A model generated the notes under the pieces. It had not been told where the DNA came from. It did no database searches and worked only from the letters and a program-made list of their open reading frames with translations. Below, piece by piece: positions 10,689-60,978 of a DNA stretch of 64,000 bases; position 1 is the stretch's first letter; the number at the start of each line of letters is the position of its first letter. The stretch lies in sequence record MH051915; one strand, 5' to 3'. A program made the position numbers and the translations under genes. Origin of the DNA: Enterobacteria phage vB_EcoM_IME339.

Positions 10689-11548
10689 AGCCAACTATTT
10701 TGACTGATATTGATGGAGTATGTTTAAGCTGGCAATCAGGCCTTCCTTATTTTGCTCAGAAATATAATCTTCCATTAGAACATATTTTAAAAATGATCCA
10801 AGATGAGAAATTTATTTCTCCAGGTAAACTCTTTAATTGTGACGAAGAACTTGGCGTCAAGTTAATTGAAAAATACAATCGTTCAGATTTTATTCGTTAT
10901 TTGTCTCCGTATAAAGATGCCCTGTGTGTAATTAACAAATTAAAAGAAGATTATAATTTTGTAGCTGTTACAGCATTGGGTGATTCTATTGACGCTCTGT
11001 TGAATCGTCAATTTAATTTGAATGCTCTTTTTCCTGGTGCCTTCTCAGAAGTAATGATGTGTGGTCATGATTCTTCAAAAGAAGAGTTATTCAAAAAGGC
11101 AAAAGAGAAATATAACGTAATTTGTTATATTGACGATCTCGCTCACCACTGCGACCATGCGAGTGAAATATTAAATGTTCCGGTTTATTGGATGGCTCGA
11201 GGAGAGCGTGATAAAATTCCAAAAACTGCGCAGCGAGTTTATACATGGAATGATGTAGAAAATAAGCTTTTTTCACCAAAGGAAAATAAAGAAAGTTTTG
11301 ATAGTGAAAAAGCTATAAAAGATGTAATTGAGAAGATGGTTAAAAACGATTCTTTTCGTTGGAACACTACCTGGAGAACTCCTGGATTTAATCCGTATAA
11401 TCCATATTATACACATCCATATAATCCATATTATACACACCCGTATCATATGAATCCATTCCATACGTGGAGTTATACCAAGCCTGGCGATGCAGGGTAT
11501 TTTAATAGATTTACTAGTGGTGATAATATTTTCCAAGGAGCATTCTAA
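10685..11548 (+). CDS. HAD-superfamily hydrolase-like protein with C-terminal Pro/Tyr/His-rich repeat tail, 287 aa
   Basis: N-terminal motif I ILTDIDGV (DxDG), later CYIDDLAHHCD; C-terminus NPYNPYYTHPYNPYYTHPYHMNPFHTW. Confidence 0.65.
   Translation: MKPTILTDIDGVCLSWQSGLPYFAQKYNLPLEHILKMIQDEKFISPGKLFNCDEELGVKLIEKYNRSDFIRYLSPYKDALCVINKLKEDYNFVAVTALGDSIDALLNRQFNLNALFPGAFSEVMMCGHDSSKEELFKKAKEKYNVICYIDDLAHHCDHASEILNVPVYWMARGERDKIPKTAQRVYTWNDVENKLFSPKENKESFDSEKAIKDVIEKMVKNDSFRWNTTWRTPGFNPYNPYYTHPYNPYYTHPYHMNPFHTWSYTKPGDAGYFNRFTSGDNIFQGAF
11401..11448 (+). repeat. Imperfect 24-bp tandem direct repeat (2 copies) encoding the PYNPYYTH repeat
   Basis: tccatattatacacatccatataa / tccatattatacacacccgtatca. 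Confidence 0.6.
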
Positions 11549-11817: not shown

Positions 11818-13277
11818 TTCTTAAAATTCTGAATGAAATAGCATCTATTGGATCAACTAAGCAGAAGCAAGCAATTCTTGAAAAGAATAAAGATAATGAA
11901 TTGCTTAAACGAGTATATCGTCTGACTTATTCTCGTGGGTTACAGTATTATATCAAGAAATGGCCTAAACCTGGTATTGCTACCCAGAGTTTTGGAATGC
12001 TGACTATTACCGATATGCTTGACTTCATTGAATTCACGTTAGCTACTCGGAAATTGACTGGAAATGCTGCAATTGAGGAATTAACTGGATATATCACTGA
12101 TGGTAAAAAGGATGATGTTGAAGTTTTGCGTCGAGTTATGATGCGAGACCTTGAATGTGGTGCTTCAGTATCTATTGCAAACAAAGTTTGGCCAGGTTTA
12201 ATTCCTGAACAACCTCAAATGCTAGCAAGTTCTTATGATGAAAAAGGCATTAATAAGAATATCAAGTTTCCAGCTTTTGCACAGCTAAAAGCAGATGGAG
12301 CTCGGTGTTTTGCTGAAGTTCGAGGTGATGAATTAGATGATGTTCGTCTTTTATCACGAGCTGGTAATGAATATCTAGGATTAGATCTTCTTAAGGAAGA
12401 GTTAATCAAAATGACTGCTGAAGCCCGCCAGATTCATCCAGAAGGTGTGTTAATTGATGGCGAATTGGTATACCATGAGCAAGTTAAAAAGGAACCAGAA
12501 GGCCTAGATTTTCTTTTTGATGCTTATCCTGAAATTAGTAAAGCTAAAGAATTCGCCGAAGTAGCGGAATCTCGTACTGCTTCTAATGGAATCGCCAATA
12601 AATCCTTAAAAGGAACCATTTCTGAAAAAGAAGCTCAATGCATGAAGTTTCAGGTCTGGGATTATGTCCCGTTGGTAGAAATATACGGTCTTCCGGCATT
12701 TCGTTTAAAATATGATGTACGTTTTTCTAAACTAGAACAAATGACATCAGGATATGATAAAGTAATTTTAATTGAAAACCAAGTAGTAAATAACCTAGAT
12801 GAAGCTAAGGTAATTTATAAAAAGTATATTGACCAAGGTCTCGAAGGTATTATTCTCAAAAATACCGATGGATTGTGGGAAAATGCTCGTTCAAAAAATC
12901 TCTATAAATTTAAAGAAGTAATTGATGTTGATTTAAAAATTGTAGGAATTTATCCTCACCGTAAAGACCCTACTAAAGCGGGTGGGTTTATTCTTGAATC
13001 AGAGTGTGGAAAAATTAAAGTAAATGCAGGTTCAGGCTTAAAAGATAAAGCCGGTGTAAAATCGCATGAACTTGACCGTACTCGCATTATGGAAAACCAA
13101 AATTATTATATTGGAAAAATTCTAGAGTGCGAATGCAACGGTTGGTTAAAATCTGATGGCCGCACTGATTACGTTAAATTATTTCTTCCGATTGCGATTC
13201 GTTTGCGTGAAGATAAAACTAAAGCTAATACATTCGAAGATGTATTTGGTGATTTTCATGAGGTAACTGGTCTATGA
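11814..13277 (+). CDS. 30: ATP-dependent DNA ligase (gp30), 487 aa
   Basis: Translation MILKILNEIASIGSTKQKQAILEKNKDNELLKRVYRL... recognised as T4 DNA ligase; contains adenylation-site KADGAR (motif I). Confidence 0.95.
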   Translation: MILKILNEIASIGSTKQKQAILEKNKDNELLKRVYRLTYSRGLQYYIKKWPKPGIATQSFGMLTITDMLDFIEFTLATRKLTGNAAIEELTGYITDGKKDDVEVLRRVMMRDLECGASVSIANKVWPGLIPEQPQMLASSYDEKGINKNIKFPAFAQLKADGARCFAEVRGDELDDVRLLSRAGNEYLGLDLLKEELIKMTAEARQIHPEGVLIDGELVYHEQVKKEPEGLDFLFDAYPEISKAKEFAEVAESRTASNGIANKSLKGTISEKEAQCMKFQVWDYVPLVEIYGLPAFRLKYDVRFSKLEQMTSGYDKVILIENQVVNNLDEAKVIYKKYIDQGLEGIILKNTDGLWENARSKNLYKFKEVIDVDLKIVGIYPHRKDPTKAGGFILESECGKIKVNAGSGLKDKAGVKSHELDRTRIMENQNYYIGKILECECNGWLKSDGRTDYVKLFLPIAIRLREDKTKANTFEDVFGDFHEVTGL

Positions 13278-26286: not shown

Positions 26287-26316
26287 GGCCCTTCCTTTTT
26301 GGTTGGGCCTTTTTTA
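26287..26316 (+). terminator. Stem-loop GGCCC...GGGCC followed by TTTTTTAATTT
   Basis: GC stem plus U-run between convergent uvsY.-2 and uvsW.1. Confidence 0.6.
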
Positions 26317-26318
26317 AT

Positions 26319-26609
26319 TTAAAAGCTTTCTTCTACTTCATCGTCTGAATCTTCTAATTCAGCTCTTTTTCCTGCCAAAGCATCTCTCACAGAGATGTCA
26401 TCAGTATCTTTTAATTCAGTTTCTTTAACTCTTTTCTTATAATAAGCTTCAAGTTCTTCTAGACCTTCTAATGTTTGACAATCTTTAACTCTTTTCTTAT
26501 AATAAGCTTCAAGTTCTTCTAGACCTTCTAATGTTTGACAAGAGGCAATTTTACCCATAAATTCATCAATAGAAGCTTCATAAAGAAATTGTTTAAATTC
26601 TAGTAACAT
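26319..26609 (-). CDS. uvsW.1: UvsW.1 carrying an internal 20-aa tandem duplication (96 aa here)
   Basis: Track start 26621 is TTG; ATG at 26609 with GGAG SD; the two 20-aa repeats sit in register as CQTLEGLEELEAYYKKRVKD / CQTLEGLEELEAYYKKRVKE, with an identical 19-residue core. Confidence 0.8.
   Translation of the reverse strand: MLLEFKQFLYEASIDEFMGKIASCQTLEGLEELEAYYKKRVKDCQTLEGLEELEAYYKKRVKETELKDTDDISVRDALAGKRAELEDSDDEVEESF
26422..26541. repeat. Perfect 60-bp tandem direct duplication (2 copies) inside uvsW.1
   Basis: 26422-26481 is identical to 26482-26541. Confidence 0.9.
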
Positions 26610-26634
26610 CTTTTTCTCCAAAGGGCCGAAGCCC

Positions 26635-28146
26635 TTATAAATTAACTGTTTTCATTACGTAATTAAATTTTTCATCTGCGTAGCGCTGAATACGATCAAT
26701 ACCGTGTTTTAAAAGATAGTTCAAATGAACATATTTCTTTTTCGTATTAGCAGATTTTGGCTTAACACCGCAATCATCAATGAGGTCCCAGACCGTTGCG
26801 ATTGTTTTAGAACCGTGCTTACGTAATACGCGACCTATTGTTTGCAATACAATAATTTTAGATTTAACACCGTGCGCTAAAACAACGTGATGTAGATTTT
26901 TAACTGAAATACCAGTAGAAAATACACCATAACTAGCTACTATAATTATTCCTTTACCGTTTTCAGCTAAGGTTTTCATTACGTTGCGTGTTTCGGTATC
27001 AACTTCCCCTGATACGTAATAAACTTTATCGTATTCATTTTTAATTAAATCGAAAATAGCTTTACCGTGCGATACGTGTTTAAACATGACAAAAGCGTTT
27101 TCATCTTTTTGTGCAAGTTTAATAGCTAATTTAGCGATCCATTTATTTCTTTTACTGAGCCCAGTAATAATTTTTATTTCTTCTTGGTAAGTTTTTCCCT
27201 TTAATTTAGTAGTGAACTCATCGGGATAGCGAAGAAAAATACTATTAATTTTTAGCTCAGTTACTTGTCCATCTTCCATTAATTTAGAAGTCGTTACTGG
27301 CTTAAATATTTCACCAAACATTCCAACATACTGCATGATATTGGCTTTGCCATCACGTAATGAACCAGACAAACCGAATTTGAACATGCAGTTATTTAAA
27401 CCTGATATGATAGATGAAATACTTTTTCCTGTAGCAAGATGGCATTCATCATTCATCATCATTCCAAACTGTGAGAACCATTCTTTTGGTTGTTTTACTA
27501 CAGTTTGCCATGTACCAACAATTACCGGTGCATCATTTTTATATTTATCATCTTTTGATGCTCCGCCGCCGATTTTCTTTATCATTGCATGACTGAATAA
27601 ACGATAATCAACAAAGTCATCAGCCATCTGAGTTGTTAAAGCAGTTGTTGGAACAATGATAAGAATTTTACCTTCATAATTTTCCAAATAATAACGTGCA
27701 AGCAAAGCTTGAATTAAAGATTTACCTGCGGATGTTGGAAGATTAAGAATTCTACGACGATTAACTAATCCTTCGAACACTGCATCTTTTTGATACCAGT
27801 GTGGTTCAATTCTTTTATTTCCTGAATAGATTTCTAACTTAGAAAGCCATTCATCAAAATCTTTTCTTGATAATTCTTCTTTTTCGTTAATTTGCGGGTC
27901 AATCCAAGCTTTATAGCCAAAGTTATCGCAGAACTTTTTAATTTGCCCGACTAAACCAAACGGAAGAAGGCGATTATAATCTAATAGACGGATTCGTCCA
28001 TCCCAGTGACCATACTTGTATTTCGGATTAAAACGATACCCATCAGCTTCGAAGCTAAAGAAATCACGGAGTTCATGAAATGTACTTTCTTCACAATCAA
28101 TTCTCACGTGACTAAAATCATAAAAATGCACTTTAATGTCAGTCAT
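26635..28146 (-). CDS. uvsW: UvsW RNA-DNA/DNA helicase (SF2)
   Basis: Walker A LPTSAGKS, DExH-type NDECH; length 503 aa and synteny. Confidence 0.93.
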   Translation of the reverse strand: MTDIKVHFYDFSHVRIDCEESTFHELRDFFSFEADGYRFNPKYKYGHWDGRIRLLDYNRLLPFGLVGQIKKFCDNFGYKAWIDPQINEKEELSRKDFDEWLSKLEIYSGNKRIEPHWYQKDAVFEGLVNRRRILNLPTSAGKSLIQALLARYYLENYEGKILIIVPTTALTTQMADDFVDYRLFSHAMIKKIGGGASKDDKYKNDAPVIVGTWQTVVKQPKEWFSQFGMMMNDECHLATGKSISSIISGLNNCMFKFGLSGSLRDGKANIMQYVGMFGEIFKPVTTSKLMEDGQVTELKINSIFLRYPDEFTTKLKGKTYQEEIKIITGLSKRNKWIAKLAIKLAQKDENAFVMFKHVSHGKAIFDLIKNEYDKVYYVSGEVDTETRNVMKTLAENGKGIIIVASYGVFSTGISVKNLHHVVLAHGVKSKIIVLQTIGRVLRKHGSKTIATVWDLIDDCGVKPKSANTKKKYVHLNYLLKHGIDRIQRYADEKFNYVMKTVNL

Positions 28147-28175
28147 GTCTAAATACCATGTAATAAATATATCTA

Positions 28176-28183
28176 TATTTATA
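28176..28183 (-). promoter_or_regulatory. Late-promoter motif (TATAAATA on - strand) upstream of uvsW
   Basis: TATTTATA on + strand about 30 nt upstream of the uvsW ATG. Confidence 0.5.
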
Positions 28184-28196
28184 CTGAGGAAATATT

Positions 28197-28877
28197 ATGA
28201 TAGATAAAGATTATATTGCAGAGCTGAAGGCTCTTGATGATAATAAAGAAGCTAAGGCTAAATTAGCTGAATATGCTGAACAGTTTGGTATAAAGGTCAA
28301 AAAGAATAAATCTTTTGATAATATCGTTATTGATATTGAAGAAGCCCTCCAGAAGCTCGCTAGTGAACCTATGCCAGAGACTGATGGGTTATCTATTAAA
28401 GACTTAATCAATGCTGCTGATGCCGCAGACGGATTAAAATATGACGATGAAGAAGTCAATCCAGAGGCAGCACTTCTGATTGATTCTCCGGTTAAATCTG
28501 ACATTAAAATTGAAGTAGTCGAAACGGATAAAATTCCCGAAAATACCGATGTTTTGATTGAAGATACTCCTTTTGTTGAAGAAAAATTCGAGAAGGCTGT
28601 AGCTGAGATTATTGAATCTGAAAAGCCGTCTGTATTTACTCTTCCGGAAAACTTTAGTCCGAATCTTCAGCTGATTGGAAAAAATCCAGGATTCTGTACT
28701 GTTCCTTGGTGGATTTACCAGTGGATTGCTGAAACTCCGGATTGGAAATCTCACCCAACTAGTTTTGAACACGCGTCGGCACATCAAACTTTATTTAGCT
28801 TAATTTACTACATTAACCGTGACGGATCAGTTCTAATTCGTGAAACACGCAACTCTTCTTTCGTAACATTAAAATAA
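28197..28877 (+). CDS. inh: Inh, inhibitor of prohead protease
   Basis: 226-aa ORF immediately upstream of hoc as in T4; GAGGAA SD. Confidence 0.75.
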   Translation: MIDKDYIAELKALDDNKEAKAKLAEYAEQFGIKVKKNKSFDNIVIDIEEALQKLASEPMPETDGLSIKDLINAADAADGLKYDDEEVNPEAALLIDSPVKSDIKIEVVETDKIPENTDVLIEDTPFVEEKFEKAVAEIIESEKPSVFTLPENFSPNLQLIGKNPGFCTVPWWIYQWIAETPDWKSHPTSFEHASAHQTLFSLIYYINRDGSVLIRETRNSSFVTLK

Positions 28878-28886
28878 GGATAACTT

Positions 28887-30017
28887 ATGGCTTTTACAGT
28901 TGATATAACTCCTAAAACACCTACTGGAGTTATAGATCAGACTCAGCAGTTTACTGCTACACCCAGTGGTGAAACTGGAGGTGGAACTATTACCTATGCT
29001 TGGACTGTAGACGATGTTCCACAGGATGGAGCTGAAGCAACTTTTAGTTATGTACTAAAAGGACCTGCCGGTCAAAAGACTATTAAAGTAGTTGCAACAA
29101 ACACAGTTCCAGATACTGATGCTGAAACAGCAGAAGCTACTACAACTATCACAGTTCAAAATAAGACACAGACAACTACCTTAGCTGTAACTCCTGATAG
29201 TCCTGCTGCTGGAGTGATTGGAACTCCTGTTGAATTTACTGCTGCTTTAGCTTCTCAACCATCAGGCGCATCTGCTACGTATCAGTGGCATGTAGATGAT
29301 TCTCCTGTTAGTGAAGCAACTTCCGCTACATTTAACTATACTCCAACTACAAGTGGAGTAAAAAGAATTAAATGCGTAGCCCAAGTAACTGCAGAAAATT
29401 ATAATGAAAAGGAAGTTACTTCCAATGAAGTATCATTGACAGTTAATAAGAAGACAATGAATCCACAGGTTACATTGACTCCTCCTTCTATTAACGTTCA
29501 GCAAGATGCTTCGGCTACATTTACTGCTAACGTTACGGATGCTCCGGAAGAAGCACAAATTACGTATTCATGGAAGAAAGATTCTTCTCCTGTAGAAGGG
29601 TCAACTAATGTATACACCGTTGATACATCATCTATTGGAAGTCAAACTATTGAAGTTACTGCAACTGTTACTGCCACTGATTATGATAGCAAAACTATTA
29701 CAGCAGAAGGTCAAGTTCAGGTAACTGATAAAGTTGCTCCGGAACCAGAAGGTGAATTACCTTATGTTCATCCTCTTCCACATCGCACTTCAGCTTATAT
29801 CTGGTGCGGTTGGTGGGTTATGGATGAAATCCAAAAAATGACTGAAGAAGGTAAAGATTGGAAAACTGAAGATCCAGACAGTAAATACTACCTGCATCGT
29901 TACACTCTTCAGAAGATGATGAAAGACTATCCAGAAGTTGATGTTCAAGAATCGCGCAATGGATACATCATTCATAAAACTGCTTTAGAAACTGGTATCA
30001 TCTATACCTATCCATAA
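28887..30017 (+). CDS. hoc: Hoc, highly immunogenic outer capsid protein (Ig-like domains)
   Basis: 376 aa; repeated Thr/Val-rich beta-sandwich-like segments; synteny. Confidence 0.9.
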   Translation: MAFTVDITPKTPTGVIDQTQQFTATPSGETGGGTITYAWTVDDVPQDGAEATFSYVLKGPAGQKTIKVVATNTVPDTDAETAEATTTITVQNKTQTTTLAVTPDSPAAGVIGTPVEFTAALASQPSGASATYQWHVDDSPVSEATSATFNYTPTTSGVKRIKCVAQVTAENYNEKEVTSNEVSLTVNKKTMNPQVTLTPPSINVQQDASATFTANVTDAPEEAQITYSWKKDSSPVEGSTNVYTVDTSSIGSQTIEVTATVTATDYDSKTITAEGQVQVTDKVAPEPEGELPYVHPLPHRTSAYIWCGWWVMDEIQKMTEEGKDWKTEDPDSKYYLHRYTLQKMMKDYPEVDVQESRNGYIIHKTALETGIIYTYP

Positions 30018-30021
30018 TCTC

Positions 30022-30048
30022 AGGGGCTTCGGCCCCTTTCTTCATTTT
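30022..30048 (+). terminator. Intrinsic terminator AGGGGCTTCGGCCCCT plus T-rich tail
   Basis: Perfect stem with TTCG loop and downstream T-tract. Confidence 0.7.
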
Positions 30049-31632: not shown

Positions 31633-32913
31633 TTCATCAACGATAATTTTTGGTAGCTTAACACCTAATAAAACAGACAAATCTGAACGACCCGCCATTT
31701 TATCCATGTCTCCACCATCAATTATTCTTGCTTCTTTTTCATCTTTTGCTACAGTGTAAGGATTTGCAGATAAAGCATATCTAACTAATAAACCGATAGA
31801 TGGCTGCAAACTTTCTGGATCAACTACAACTTTAAATGCACCTACATGTTCAGGGTCATCTAAGTCAAGACCTTCTGTATACGGAGCATAGAAAATTGAT
31901 CCAACAATTTCTTTTTCGCCAATATTTTCTACTACGCCAACGATTACATAATCTAATGGGCTGTTAGTATCGCAATAAAGCGGTAAACCATTAGCTAAGA
32001 ACCCGTAGGCATTTTGTGAAAGATATTTATCATCTTCTGGTTTATGTTTTAACCAACCTGATGCAGCAAGAATCGCAGCAGCACGAGCTGAAGCAACACA
32101 GAACGTTGCTGTATAAGTTGATTCTTTTTGGATATGTGAAACCATTTCACATACCATTCGGTATAATGAACGACCAGCTTCAGGTGCAGATGCATAACTC
32201 AAATCAATGAATCCAGTATCAGTAATTCCTGTAACTTTATAGCGTTTTGACACTGTAATCAAAGACTGTAGAATATCTTTATTGATTTCATCCGCCATTT
32301 CAGTTGCAAGCAAATCTTCCAAGAAATTAGGAGCATCGAATCCATTTGCTTCTAAATCTTGTGCTAATTCAACTGTGATGCCAGTTTTAAGTTTACGAGA
32401 TTTAACCGCGGTTTGCCATTTATTAATCTGGAATCTAGCATCAGCAATTTCGCTATCAGAGCTTTCAAATTTGCTCGTTGACGCTGCGTCAGAAAATAGA
32501 CGAACCTTTAAAAGAACAATTGCAATCTGAAGAGCTAATTCTAAATCGCTTTCTTCAATATCAGCAAATGGTGTATCTTCTAATACTTTATAAACGATAT
32601 TATTATATTTGAATAAATCGCCTTTATTGAGAGTTAATTTAGACTCTTCTGTTAATTCTGTGATTTGTTCTCGGTCTACGTACCCAGCTTCGCCAGCGTA
32701 AGTAGCACCAGTTTTAAATGTAAATTCGTTATCTGGGTTAAGGTATTTGATACCATAAAAAGCAGCAACAGGTTGATTAGTTCTTTGCGTTGCTACAATG
32801 TCAGAATATATTAATTTAGTGGTAGCGCGAGTCAAAGCAACGAGATTTGGGCGACCGATTGAGTTGCTATTCGTTGTGGTTGATTCGCGCAGAAGTTCGT
32901 TGATTTTAGCCAT
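31630..32913 (-). CDS. 24: Capsid vertex protein gp24
   Basis: 427 aa; paralogous to gp23; synteny. Confidence 0.92.
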   Translation of the reverse strand: MAKINELLRESTTTNSNSIGRPNLVALTRATTKLIYSDIVATQRTNQPVAAFYGIKYLNPDNEFTFKTGATYAGEAGYVDREQITELTEESKLTLNKGDLFKYNNIVYKVLEDTPFADIEESDLELALQIAIVLLKVRLFSDAASTSKFESSDSEIADARFQINKWQTAVKSRKLKTGITVELAQDLEANGFDAPNFLEDLLATEMADEINKDILQSLITVSKRYKVTGITDTGFIDLSYASAPEAGRSLYRMVCEMVSHIQKESTYTATFCVASARAAAILAASGWLKHKPEDDKYLSQNAYGFLANGLPLYCDTNSPLDYVIVGVVENIGEKEIVGSIFYAPYTEGLDLDDPEHVGAFKVVVDPESLQPSIGLLVRYALSANPYTVAKDEKEARIIDGGDMDKMAGRSDLSVLLGVKLPKIIVDE

Positions 32914-36484: not shown

Positions 36485-36725
36485 TATTCATCATCCTCGT
36501 CTTCGTCATCTTCGTCAGAGTCTTTGTCTTTTTTGTCGTCTTTATCATCACTATCTTCGTCATCATCCTCGTCTTCAGGTTCTTCACCTTCGATTAAGAA
36601 ATTACGAGCGATAGCGATTTTTTCTTCTTTAATTAAATCAATCGTTCTTGCAGCCATGGCTTCAGCAAATAATTTACGAGCGGCTACGAGGTCGTTTGAT
36701 TTAATAGCTTCAATTAAACCTTCCA

Positions 36726-58721: not shown

Positions 58722-59276
58722 TTATGGCCTCTCATACACATAGCTTCTCAATTTATTAGCCCAACGACTCCAATTTCCAACTATAGTTTTTGTATAATTT
58801 TTAACAAGAGTTTTTCTTATTGGAGCTGGAGGATTCGTTGGTTCAGTAGTATCAGAAGATGACCTAGAATTACTGCCAGAACCTCCAGATTCACTTTGTT
58901 CTTGGTAGTCATATATTAATGTTACTTCGTAAGTGAATGTCTTCTGGAGGTTTTGAGGAGCTTTCCATAGATATAACTGAGTATTAGAATCAGTTGGAAG
59001 GTCTTCCCATGAAGCAGCAGTTTTAAATTCATTATCTAAACGATATTTCAACGCATCATTTCCAAATCCAAATACAGATTCATACGTTCCATATAAACGA
59101 TTTTCTTCTACTAAAACCCCAGGAGTTTCTTCGTAACTAGTTATATTTATAGATACTAACGTTTCACCTGTTTCTAATTGAGCGGTAAAGGTGACGTCGA
59201 TAGAAGAACCTTCCATGGATTCTCCTAAATCAGCGCTCATTGGAAGTATATTAGCCAATGTCAATCCTCGATCCAT
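58722..59276 (-). CDS. Hypothetical protein between genes 5 and 5.4 (5.1-like), about 184 aa
   Basis: ORF; track start is TTG, next in-frame ATG at 59276; no clear SD, start uncertain. Confidence 0.6.
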
Positions 59277-60978
59277 CAATTGTGTATTGACCAGATGAAA
59301 TAGAACTCATAGATGCCATTTTTTCTGTCCAATCGCCACCAACGTCCCAATCAACTGTACCAGCAACTTTCCAAGAAAGATTTCCATTTACTGTATTAGT
59401 CTGATTTCCTTCAACTAAAGTGGTAGCATCTCCTTTAACTGTAATGTCAGCATTACCTTCAACTACAATAGTAACATTACCTTTGACTAGGATAGTTCCA
59501 TTACCTTCAACTGTCTTAGTTTCATCGCCACGCACAAATATTGTATTGCTTCCATCTATTTGGTGGAGACGATTATCCATGTTGTAATAAATTTCTGACC
59601 CACCGACGTTAGTCTTTTTATCGCCAGCTACCAAAAAATTACCATCAGCATTTGTTATATCATACAAATTATCAACAGTTTTTCTTGTTCTTCTTCCTGA
59701 TGGTGATACTTCCTCATACGTTCCAGTCGGATGAACTAATCTGTATCGTTCTTGTCCCGGGGTATCGTCAAATTCCTGAATATGACCGCTTTCAGTTTCC
59801 ATTGTGTGAACATACGGATATTCACCTTTATATGAAGAAACAGGTTCTTTAAATAAAATTCTCGAATCATTCGGAATAGGAGGGTCAGCTGGATCAGAAG
59901 ACTTTGCTACAGTAGCAGCCATTGCTGACAAAGACCTAGCCGGTGTTTTCACTTCAATACCGTATGATTCCAAATTCCCTGTAAGAATAATCATGGTAAC
60001 ACGGGATGCACGGCCTTTTGTTTGTTGATACCACAATGAATCACGACCAGCTTTATATGCTTTTTCCCAATCTCCGGCTAACATAGCAGTTAACATTGTG
60101 TTAAATTTAGCTACACCGCCAACACCCATCTGAAATGCCATATTTTCTAATGCCATTTGACGAGAACGATTAACTGCCTGCCAAACTGGGCCAACTTTAG
60201 AATGTGATTTAATGTCGCGTTGCATATCAGCCAAATCACGTTCAAATAAAGTTACCGCTTCTTCCATTGTAATAGAACCTGGATTTCCGGTAATTTCACG
60301 ACCAACTTGTTTTGATAAAACTTTATTAATTTGAGTCATATCACGAACTGGCTGCTTCATGATAAGATGACCAATACCAATTGTCGGATATCCTTCAGTA
60401 TCCCAATAAACTTTTAGTCTTAATCCTTCATCACGGCGAAGCATTTCAGCCATTGACATATTTGGATTATCATCAGTTGGAATTTCTGATAGCGGTCTAT
60501 CATCGGGATTTATCGCAGTGTCTAGATTGCTATCTTGGATAATATTAGAAGACGAATCATATCCTACTTCTCCGCCTTGGTTTAATACGTTAGTATCATT
60601 TCCTAGACGTCTAGGATACTGTCCAGTTGGGTCAGAAAATCCTTCAAGTCTATTAGGCTTTTCGCGAACTATTCCGCCATATGTGCCAAGGACAATTCCG
60701 TTAGTTTTCCATTTGTCTAAAAAATGACCATAAACTCTAGTTCCTTCTACTGGCCCTGTAACAGAACCTCCAATTCCAGACATTGCTGCAGAAGTTATAG
60801 GTTGAATAACTGACATCCATGGCAATTTATCGGTTGGAATACCCATTACGTCGCCTTGTGCTCTTTGAGGTGGATGCAGACCAACCACACGAACACGAAC
60901 ACGACCTAATTTTAATGGATCCATTCTATCTTCAACAACACCAACAAACCAATTGAGGTTATTACTTATCATTTCCAT
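59251..60978 (-). CDS. 5: Baseplate central spike with tail lysozyme domain gp5
   Basis: 575 aa; lysozyme-like middle domain and C-terminal VxGxxxxx beta-helix repeats. Confidence 0.95.
   Translation of the reverse strand: MEMISNNLNWFVGVVEDRMDPLKLGRVRVRVVGLHPPQRAQGDVMGIPTDKLPWMSVIQPITSAAMSGIGGSVTGPVEGTRVYGHFLDKWKTNGIVLGTYGGIVREKPNRLEGFSDPTGQYPRRLGNDTNVLNQGGEVGYDSSSNIIQDSNLDTAINPDDRPLSEIPTDDNPNMSMAEMLRRDEGLRLKVYWDTEGYPTIGIGHLIMKQPVRDMTQINKVLSKQVGREITGNPGSITMEEAVTLFERDLADMQRDIKSHSKVGPVWQAVNRSRQMALENMAFQMGVGGVAKFNTMLTAMLAGDWEKAYKAGRDSLWYQQTKGRASRVTMIILTGNLESYGIEVKTPARSLSAMAATVAKSSDPADPPIPNDSRILFKEPVSSYKGEYPYVHTMETESGHIQEFDDTPGQERYRLVHPTGTYEEVSPSGRRTRKTVDNLYDITNADGNFLVAGDKKTNVGGSEIYYNMDNRLHQIDGSNTIFVRGDETKTVEGNGTILVKGNVTIVVEGNADITVKGDATTLVEGNQTNTVNGNLSWKVAGTVDWDVGGDWTEKMASMSSISSGQYTIDGSRIDIG

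Follow-up and report, generated by a model that had tools for sequence, protein, structure and literature searches.

In T4, uvsW.1 is a gene of 76 codons that is conserved across T4-like phages and whose function was given as unknown in 2006 (PMC1524935); its product was later ascribed a trihelical fold and called a 'potential DNA-binding partner' of the helicase UvsW (PMC7824862). The helicase activity of UvsW triggers Retron-Eco11, and T4 mutants that escaped this retron carried frameshift deletions in uvsW in five of five cases, which also shows that plaques can form without uvsW (PMC12746101). Sensitivity to hydroxyurea is the classical phenotype of uvsW (PMC3016281). The UvsW.1 chain in PDB entry 2JPN comprises 79 aa, including a 3-residue tag. 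A second set of precedents concerns promoters rather than proteins: hybrid promoters are known to form at DNA junctions, either where IS ends supply a -35 hexamer or by promoter capture through tandem duplication, as in the E. coli long-term Cit+ lineage. A literature search on junction-created promoters returned nothing directly relevant.

We analysed a window of 64,000 nt (64 kb) from Enterobacteria phage vB_EcoM_IME339 (record MH051915), whose numbering is used below unless another record is named. Within this window, uvsW.1 contains a perfect 60-bp tandem duplication, and the junction between the copies carries a perfect match to the sigma-70 promoter consensus on the opposite strand. The gene, its neighbour and the duplicated units are laid out as follows:

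26319 to 26609, minus strand: uvsW.1 coding sequence of 96 codons and a stop codon (T4: 76 codons), from the open reading frame, PF11637 and the match to 2JPN

26635 to 28146, minus strand: uvsW helicase gene, 503 aa, from the open reading frame and the annotation in relatives

26422 to 26481, minus strand: copy 1 in plus-strand order; read along the gene it comes second (promoter-distal) and encodes the second CQTLEGLEELEAYYKKRVK(E); from TRF, repeat search and identity

26482 to 26541, minus strand: copy 2 in plus-strand order; read along the gene it comes first and encodes CQTLEGLEELEAYYKKRVK(D); from TRF, repeat search and identity

26480 to 26482, minus strand: junction codon GAT (Asp43), ancestrally GAA (Glu43), from sequence, translation and alignment

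The uvsW.1 gene begins with an ATG at 26609, ends with a stop codon at 26319-26321 on the minus strand and is preceded by a ribosome-binding site (GGAG, 26616-26619). It lies directly downstream of uvsW on the same strand, an arrangement common to its relatives, and PF11637.14 is recorded for the exact 96-aa sequence. Residues 1-43 of the product equal residues 1-43 of T4 UvsW.1 (2JPN) apart from E43D at the junction, and residues 44-96 equal T4 residues 24-76 with 100% identity. IME339 UvsW.1 is thus T4 UvsW.1 with residues C24-E43 present twice, giving 96 aa versus 76. A preliminary description of this DNA had named the gene uvsW.1 and had given 76 aa for the T4 protein against 96 aa here; the first point is confirmed by the adjoining 503-aa uvsW and by the match of both halves to 2JPN, and the second by the published codon count (PMC1524935), 2JPN and the open reading frame. 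It had also presented UvsW.1 as a partner of the UvsW helicase, which the literature consulted gives in the weaker form of a 'potential DNA-binding partner' (PMC7824862) or with the function listed as unknown (PMC1524935). Compared with T4 UvsW.1, the IME339 gene shares the position downstream of uvsW and its protein has the acidic tail at the C terminus and the invariant residues in common with that of T4, whereas the loop and helix 2 are present twice, a single E-to-D change marks the junction, and IME339 is alone in the family in having an insertion here (75 clusters; 33-homologue alignment). The gene belongs to the UvsW.1 family by sequence and synteny, yet its product departs from the single three-helix architecture of ~75 aa.

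All 60 bases of 26422-26481 are identical to those of 26482-26541 (TRF: period 60, 2.0 copies, 100% match, score 240), a result obtained also by repeat search and by direct string comparison. The identity claimed in the preliminary description is therefore secure, and the in-frame repeats that it gave as CQTLEGLEELEAYYKKRVKD and CQTLEGLEELEAYYKKRVKE are likewise present in the translated 96-aa product. There is no divergence between the copies. The repeat edges are sharp, with T at 26421 versus A at 26481 and G at 26542 versus T at 26482, so the duplication is exactly 2 x 60 nt, head-to-tail, with zero microhomology at its endpoints. About 4e-30 identical pairs of this kind are expected by chance in 64 kb, which rules out chance identity of the copies. 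This repeat is the sole exact two-copy tandem duplication with a period of at least 12 in the 64-kb window and, with one copy taken out, the resulting 391-bp segment is an exact match to phage KAW1E185. The codon for Asp43 is built from the GA that ends one unit and the T that starts the next; the two protein repeats differ in D versus E because the unit runs from the third base of codon 23 to the second base of codon 43.

As sources of the duplication, replication slippage and unequal recombination had been proposed; either would predict short direct repeats at the endpoints, and these are lacking. Set against a slippage or microhomology origin, the locus has the head-to-tail identical copies and lacks the shared endpoint repeat. 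A search of the endpoints gave no direct repeats and no convincing inverted repeats or quasi-palindromes. With no bases shared there, classical slipped mispairing and unequal homologous exchange are therefore not supported, and the sequence implies a non-homologous event of some kind.

Within the databases searched, the two-copy state is private to MH051915. The exact 96-aa protein was found once in a protein database of 5.8 billion clusters, in a cluster with one member from one contig (164,366 bp) entered as 'DNA helicase [Enterobacteria phage vB_EcoM_IME339]'; its sources are NCBI-derived only, with no read-derived (Logan or ENA) source. Only one of 75 UvsW.1 protein clusters (that of IME339) has the insert, and the other 74 are 52-79 aa long, with full-length members at 74-79 aa. 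In an alignment of 33 diverse homologues the 20-residue insert again occurs only in IME339, the other 32 being single copy, and the duplicated block includes many residues that do not vary within the family (C, T, G, E-L-E, Y-Y and R). The locus is present in 498 phage records, of which the best 60 are all single copy (391 bp versus 451). A 50-nt junction probe had no match by megablast or blastn among 50,697 phage records, and scans for an exact 32-nt junction pattern came back empty for IMG/VR, for JGI metagenomes and for GTDB genomes. We therefore reject the proposal that the two-copy form is an established, conserved UvsW.1 variant of some T4-like sub-lineage, to which we assign virtually no probability: no junction occurs in the 498 records with the locus, the best 60 of these, the other 74 clusters (52-79 aa) and the 32 other aligned homologues point to a single copy, and the copies have not diverged. 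A state that is both private and without divergence is therefore either very recent or not real. The suggestion in the preliminary description of a very recent event agrees with the absence of two copies from any relative, and the opposite case, in which two copies would be the common conserved form, fails because relatives have a single copy.

At the protein level, the duplicated C24-E43 block comprises the inter-helix loop and the entire helix 2 of the three-helix fold. A model of a single-copy homologue, built with the family alignment, has helices at 5-22, 27-43 and 48-67 (pLDDT 68, pTM 0.47) and finds 2JPN in a structure search (TM 0.72, E = 7e-6). The 96-aa model has four helices, at 5-23, 27-44, 47-68 and 72-91, and is of low confidence (pLDDT 52, pTM 0.28), AlphaFold confidence being an unreliable readout of the effect of an insertion. 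This low-confidence model (pLDDT 52) did not retrieve 2JPN in the structure search. Both endpoints of the duplication fall in predicted loops, so that one complete helix is repeated. With 96 aa and four predicted helices, against 74-79 aa in full-length homologues, the product is not a single three-helix domain of ~75 aa. An additional helix in an up-down-up bundle would turn the last helix round with respect to the first, which makes an unchanged fold unlikely for the 96-aa protein; a model at pLDDT 52 can establish neither this nor how the extra helix packs.

The same duplication has a consequence on the plus strand. A promoter scan identified at the junction the sigma-70 consensus TTGACA-17 nt-TATAAT with a 12/12 match at 26475-26503, antisense to both uvsW.1 and uvsW. 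Its parts, its predicted start and an ancestral site nearby are:

26475 to 26480, plus strand: -35 hexamer TTGACA, formed by the last bases of plus-strand copy 1 (promoter scan)

26481 to 26497, plus strand: 17-nt spacer containing the junction 26481/26482 (promoter scan)

26498 to 26503, plus strand: -10 hexamer TATAAT, bases 17-22 of plus-strand copy 2 (promoter scan)

26510 to 26511, plus strand: predicted transcription start, 7-8 nt past the -10 hexamer, placed by position

26535 to 26563, plus strand: ancestral weaker promoter-like site TTGACA-17-TAAATT, 10/12, also in single-copy relatives

The weaker 10/12 site lies antisense inside uvsW.1 and belongs to the ancestral single-copy sequence. 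At the junction site, TTGACA is the reverse complement of the Cys24-Gln25 codons (TGT CAA), and TATAAT is the reverse complement of part of Tyr36-Tyr37-Lys38 (TAT TAT AAG). In the single-copy gene TATAAT precedes TTGACA, the two together spanning 43 nt, and this sequence is without the promoter because its hexamers stand in the wrong order. After a duplication of length L the spacer is L - 43, and therefore only L = 59-61 bp gives a usable promoter; with L = 60 the spacer has its optimal length of 17 nt, and 60 is the one length of the three that keeps the reading frame. The sequence contains the sigma-70 core as defined by both hexamers and a spacing within 17 +/- 1 nt; it has no extended -10 TG, and neither a UP element nor an upstream A-tract was found in it. 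No promoters are annotated in the uvsW.1 region of T4.

Compared with T4 early (sigma-70-dependent) promoters, the junction site likewise has -35 and -10 hexamers with a 17-nt spacer on the strand of early transcription (plus in the window), but it lies inside a late-gene region, is antisense and has no A-rich upstream element. It resembles the junction promoters made by IS ends or in the Cit+ lineage in that a rearrangement brings promoter parts into a new productive arrangement, and differs from them in that both hexamers come from one 60-bp coding segment and were re-ordered, giving a perfect consensus, within a gene and antisense to it. Judged by these sequence features, a perfect promoter made by re-ordering hexamers embedded in codons is a putative variant of the known junction promoters and not a new category.

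Promoter sequences of this quality are rare in such DNA. Neither strand of the 64-kb window has a 12/12 match besides the junction site, removal of one copy leaves the window with none at all, and no perfect 12/12 site was found in ~520 kb of T4-like DNA (15 other loci, including three complete genomes), so that the natural early promoters in that DNA also differ from the junction site in this respect. When random duplications of 20-300 bp were simulated in the deduplicated window, 10 of 400,000 created a 12/12 site at the junction (2.5e-5), a frequency to be read with a ten-fold penalty, the promoter observation being post hoc and one of about ten feature classes examined. Among all possible 60-bp duplications, 41 of 63,640 create such a site (6.4e-4), and 20 of these 41 are at the uvsW.1 locus; given a 60-bp duplication inside uvsW.1, about 1 in 8 placements yields the promoter (20 of ~170 starts). 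A second locus at which a 60-bp duplication would yield a perfect sigma-70 promoter lies at 29322-29340, within hoc, and there is no duplication there. Neither an assembly join nor a neutral mutation can see whether it creates a promoter. Even after the ten-fold penalty, the data favour a real duplication that was kept for what its junction makes.

Early in infection, host RNA polymerase should initiate at the junction promoter, with a start near 26510. The resulting transcript would be antisense to the first ~33 codons of uvsW.1 and its ribosome-binding site, to the GGGC-UUCG-GCCC hairpin and to all of uvsW, and would reach inh and hoc without meeting an intrinsic terminator on the way. T4 early transcription runs along what is the plus strand of the window, an orientation taken from relatives, and no plus-strand intrinsic terminator was found between the junction promoter and inh/hoc. 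The relevant elements around the two genes are:

26287 to 26315, plus strand: GGCCC...GGGCC hairpin followed by TTTTTT, between the convergent genes uvsY.-2 and uvsW.1 (fold z = -2.8)

26623 to 26634, minus strand: GGGC-UUCG-GCCC tetraloop hairpin between the uvsW stop and the uvsW.1 ribosome-binding site, from sequence and fold, also in T4

28197 to 30017, plus strand: inh and hoc, the genes that a transcript from the junction promoter would first meet in sense orientation, from open reading frames and the IME340 annotation

30022 to 30037, plus strand: first strong terminator-like hairpin, AGGGGCTTCGGCCCCT plus a T-run, just past hoc (terminator scan)

The terminator region between uvsY.-2 and uvsW.1 has been described as conserved in T4-like phages (PMC1524935). 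The gap between uvsW and inh is ~50 bp here (28146-28197) and holds no gene, as in IME340; T4 has the homing endonuclease gene segE at this place (T4 112057-112674). The replication origin oriF is under 1 kb from the locus, inside uvsY. In the T4 records NC_000866.4 and AF158101.6, uvsW is still given as a fused ORF of 587 aa that carries a note on sequence discrepancies; one may speculate that the GC hairpin near the uvsW stop is a place where an old gel compression arose, and that the fused T4 ORF is linked to it. As to the expected consequences of the transcript, T4 AsiA silences -35-dependent promoters within minutes and T4 uvsW is a late gene; with the shut-off early and the gene late, an antisense effect on uvsW is therefore not obvious. 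An untranslated antisense RNA is moreover a substrate of Rho and may be stopped. An effect of the junction promoter on UvsW output is plausible, and a host defence can select for loss of uvsW, as the Retron-Eco11 escape mutants of T4 document (PMC12746101).

Several other repeats were observed in the window and in the co-isolated phage IME340. Imperfect tandem arrays occur at 11391-11446 (period 24, 2.3 copies, 90%), 36488-36576 (period 18, 4.9 copies, 64%) and 59404-59512 (period 24, 4.5 copies, 73%); the last recurs in IME340 and lies inside a 575-aa ORF (59251-60978) that is the counterpart of the baseplate hub/tail lysozyme gene. The hoc gene of the window (28887-30017) encodes 376 aa, as in T4, and that of IME340 has 1419 nt with a 288-nt internal repeat of 78% identity (12167-12748 of the fetched locus); the number of Hoc domains therefore varies among co-isolated phages. 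In the nrdC.x region of the IME340 record (115764-124097), about twelve consecutive CDSs are labelled 'thioredoxin', which looks like annotation carry-over and not biology.

We consider it very probable that the phage DNA itself carries the duplication. The reading we prefer, and hold somewhat likelier than all others taken together, is a real and recent 60-bp duplication that persists owing to the promoter it made, with a changed UvsW.1 perhaps contributing. One event would then have repeated UvsW.1 residues 24-43 in frame on the minus strand and assembled the promoter on the plus strand, and persistence might come about through damping of UvsW/UvsW.1 output. If the duplication is real, its promoter is likely to be active; whether the duplication has been selected is, overall, a proposition that we put a little below an even chance.

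The main technical alternative is an assembly artefact, an option raised in the preliminary description; in the form considered here, a 60-bp overlap of contig ends was left untrimmed inside the record when the assembly was circularized and rotated, the reading frame and the promoter being coincidental. Untrimmed terminal overlaps are a known finishing artefact of circularized and rotated assemblies, and such an overlap would share with the IME339 locus a perfect two-copy repeat, the lack of microhomology and the restriction to one record. IME339 was sequenced by MiSeq and assembled with Newbler 3.0 (PMC6499177), and a raw Newbler contig, or two contigs, with 60 identical end bases would give exactly this pattern without microhomology. 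The rIIA.1 CDS is the exact starting point of all three sister T4-like records from the same paper (IME340, IME281 and IME341), which run in reverse-T4 orientation; so does the window, whose genes are placed as if it began near record position 32,001 (rnlA at ~763 in the window versus 32,928 in IME340; uvsW.1 at ~58.3 kb versus 58.4 kb). The laboratory thus appears to rotate its contigs, and the IME339 record was very probably rotated too, in which case the original contig ends would be joined somewhere inside it. That no other sequence in the databases searched has the two-copy state fits an artefact as well. Against it, the three sister assemblies (~508 kb) contain no perfect tandem duplication of at least 30 bp, the 120-bp structure would fall well inside single reads at 2 x 300 nt, and the large conserved genes of the window, all of canonical T4 length, give no sign of poor assembly. 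A random join would be in frame with a chance of 1/3 and would create a 12/12 promoter with a chance of only 2.5e-5 to 6.4e-4, so that an end overlap leaves both the in-frame length and the promoter unexplained. The artefact option in the preliminary description thus gains from the rotation of the sister records and loses by their freedom from duplications and by the 12/12 promoter. Evidence from the assembly side taken alone leaves a real duplication and an artefact evenly balanced; with the promoter included, we regard an artefact as unlikely. We find it rather doubtful, if a shade more credible than an assembly error, that the duplication is real and its promoter incidental, the change being neutral, slightly deleterious or acting at the level of the protein and the sigma-70 match being inactive or irrelevant. 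On this reading uvsW.1 would be dispensable or a second helix 2 accommodated; in its favour, both endpoints fall in predicted loops, and uvsW itself is dispensable (PMC12746101). Once the locus and the length are given, moreover, about 1 in 8 placements suffices to make the promoter, so that the match is no extreme coincidence. The early shut-off of -35-dependent promoters in T4 points the same way. The unconditional chance of obtaining the promoter is nevertheless very low (2.5e-5), and the block holds invariant residues; none of the other clusters among the 75 tolerates an insertion at this place, which suggests that such variants are normally purged. A real duplication retained for its promoter remains our preferred reading.

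Real or artefact, the significance of the finding is local to one phage isolate. If the duplication proves to be an artefact, the GenBank record and the derived 96-aa 'DNA helicase' protein need correction. If it is real, the locus touches UvsW, the helicase that controls the replication-mode switch of T4 and triggers retron defence (PMC12746101). A further and distinctly improbable extension of the preferred reading is that the promoter acts, by antisense or interference, as an intrinsic brake on the uvsW-uvsW.1 operon, which would turn down the helicase that serves host defences such as type III-A3 retrons as a trigger while the gene is kept, the same event also changing UvsW.1. A real duplication would be a snapshot of two processes that as a rule have to be inferred: a protein repeat at the start of its growth, with the copies still undiverged, and a strong promoter arising de novo from hexamers that lie in conserved codons (Cys-Gln and Tyr-Tyr).
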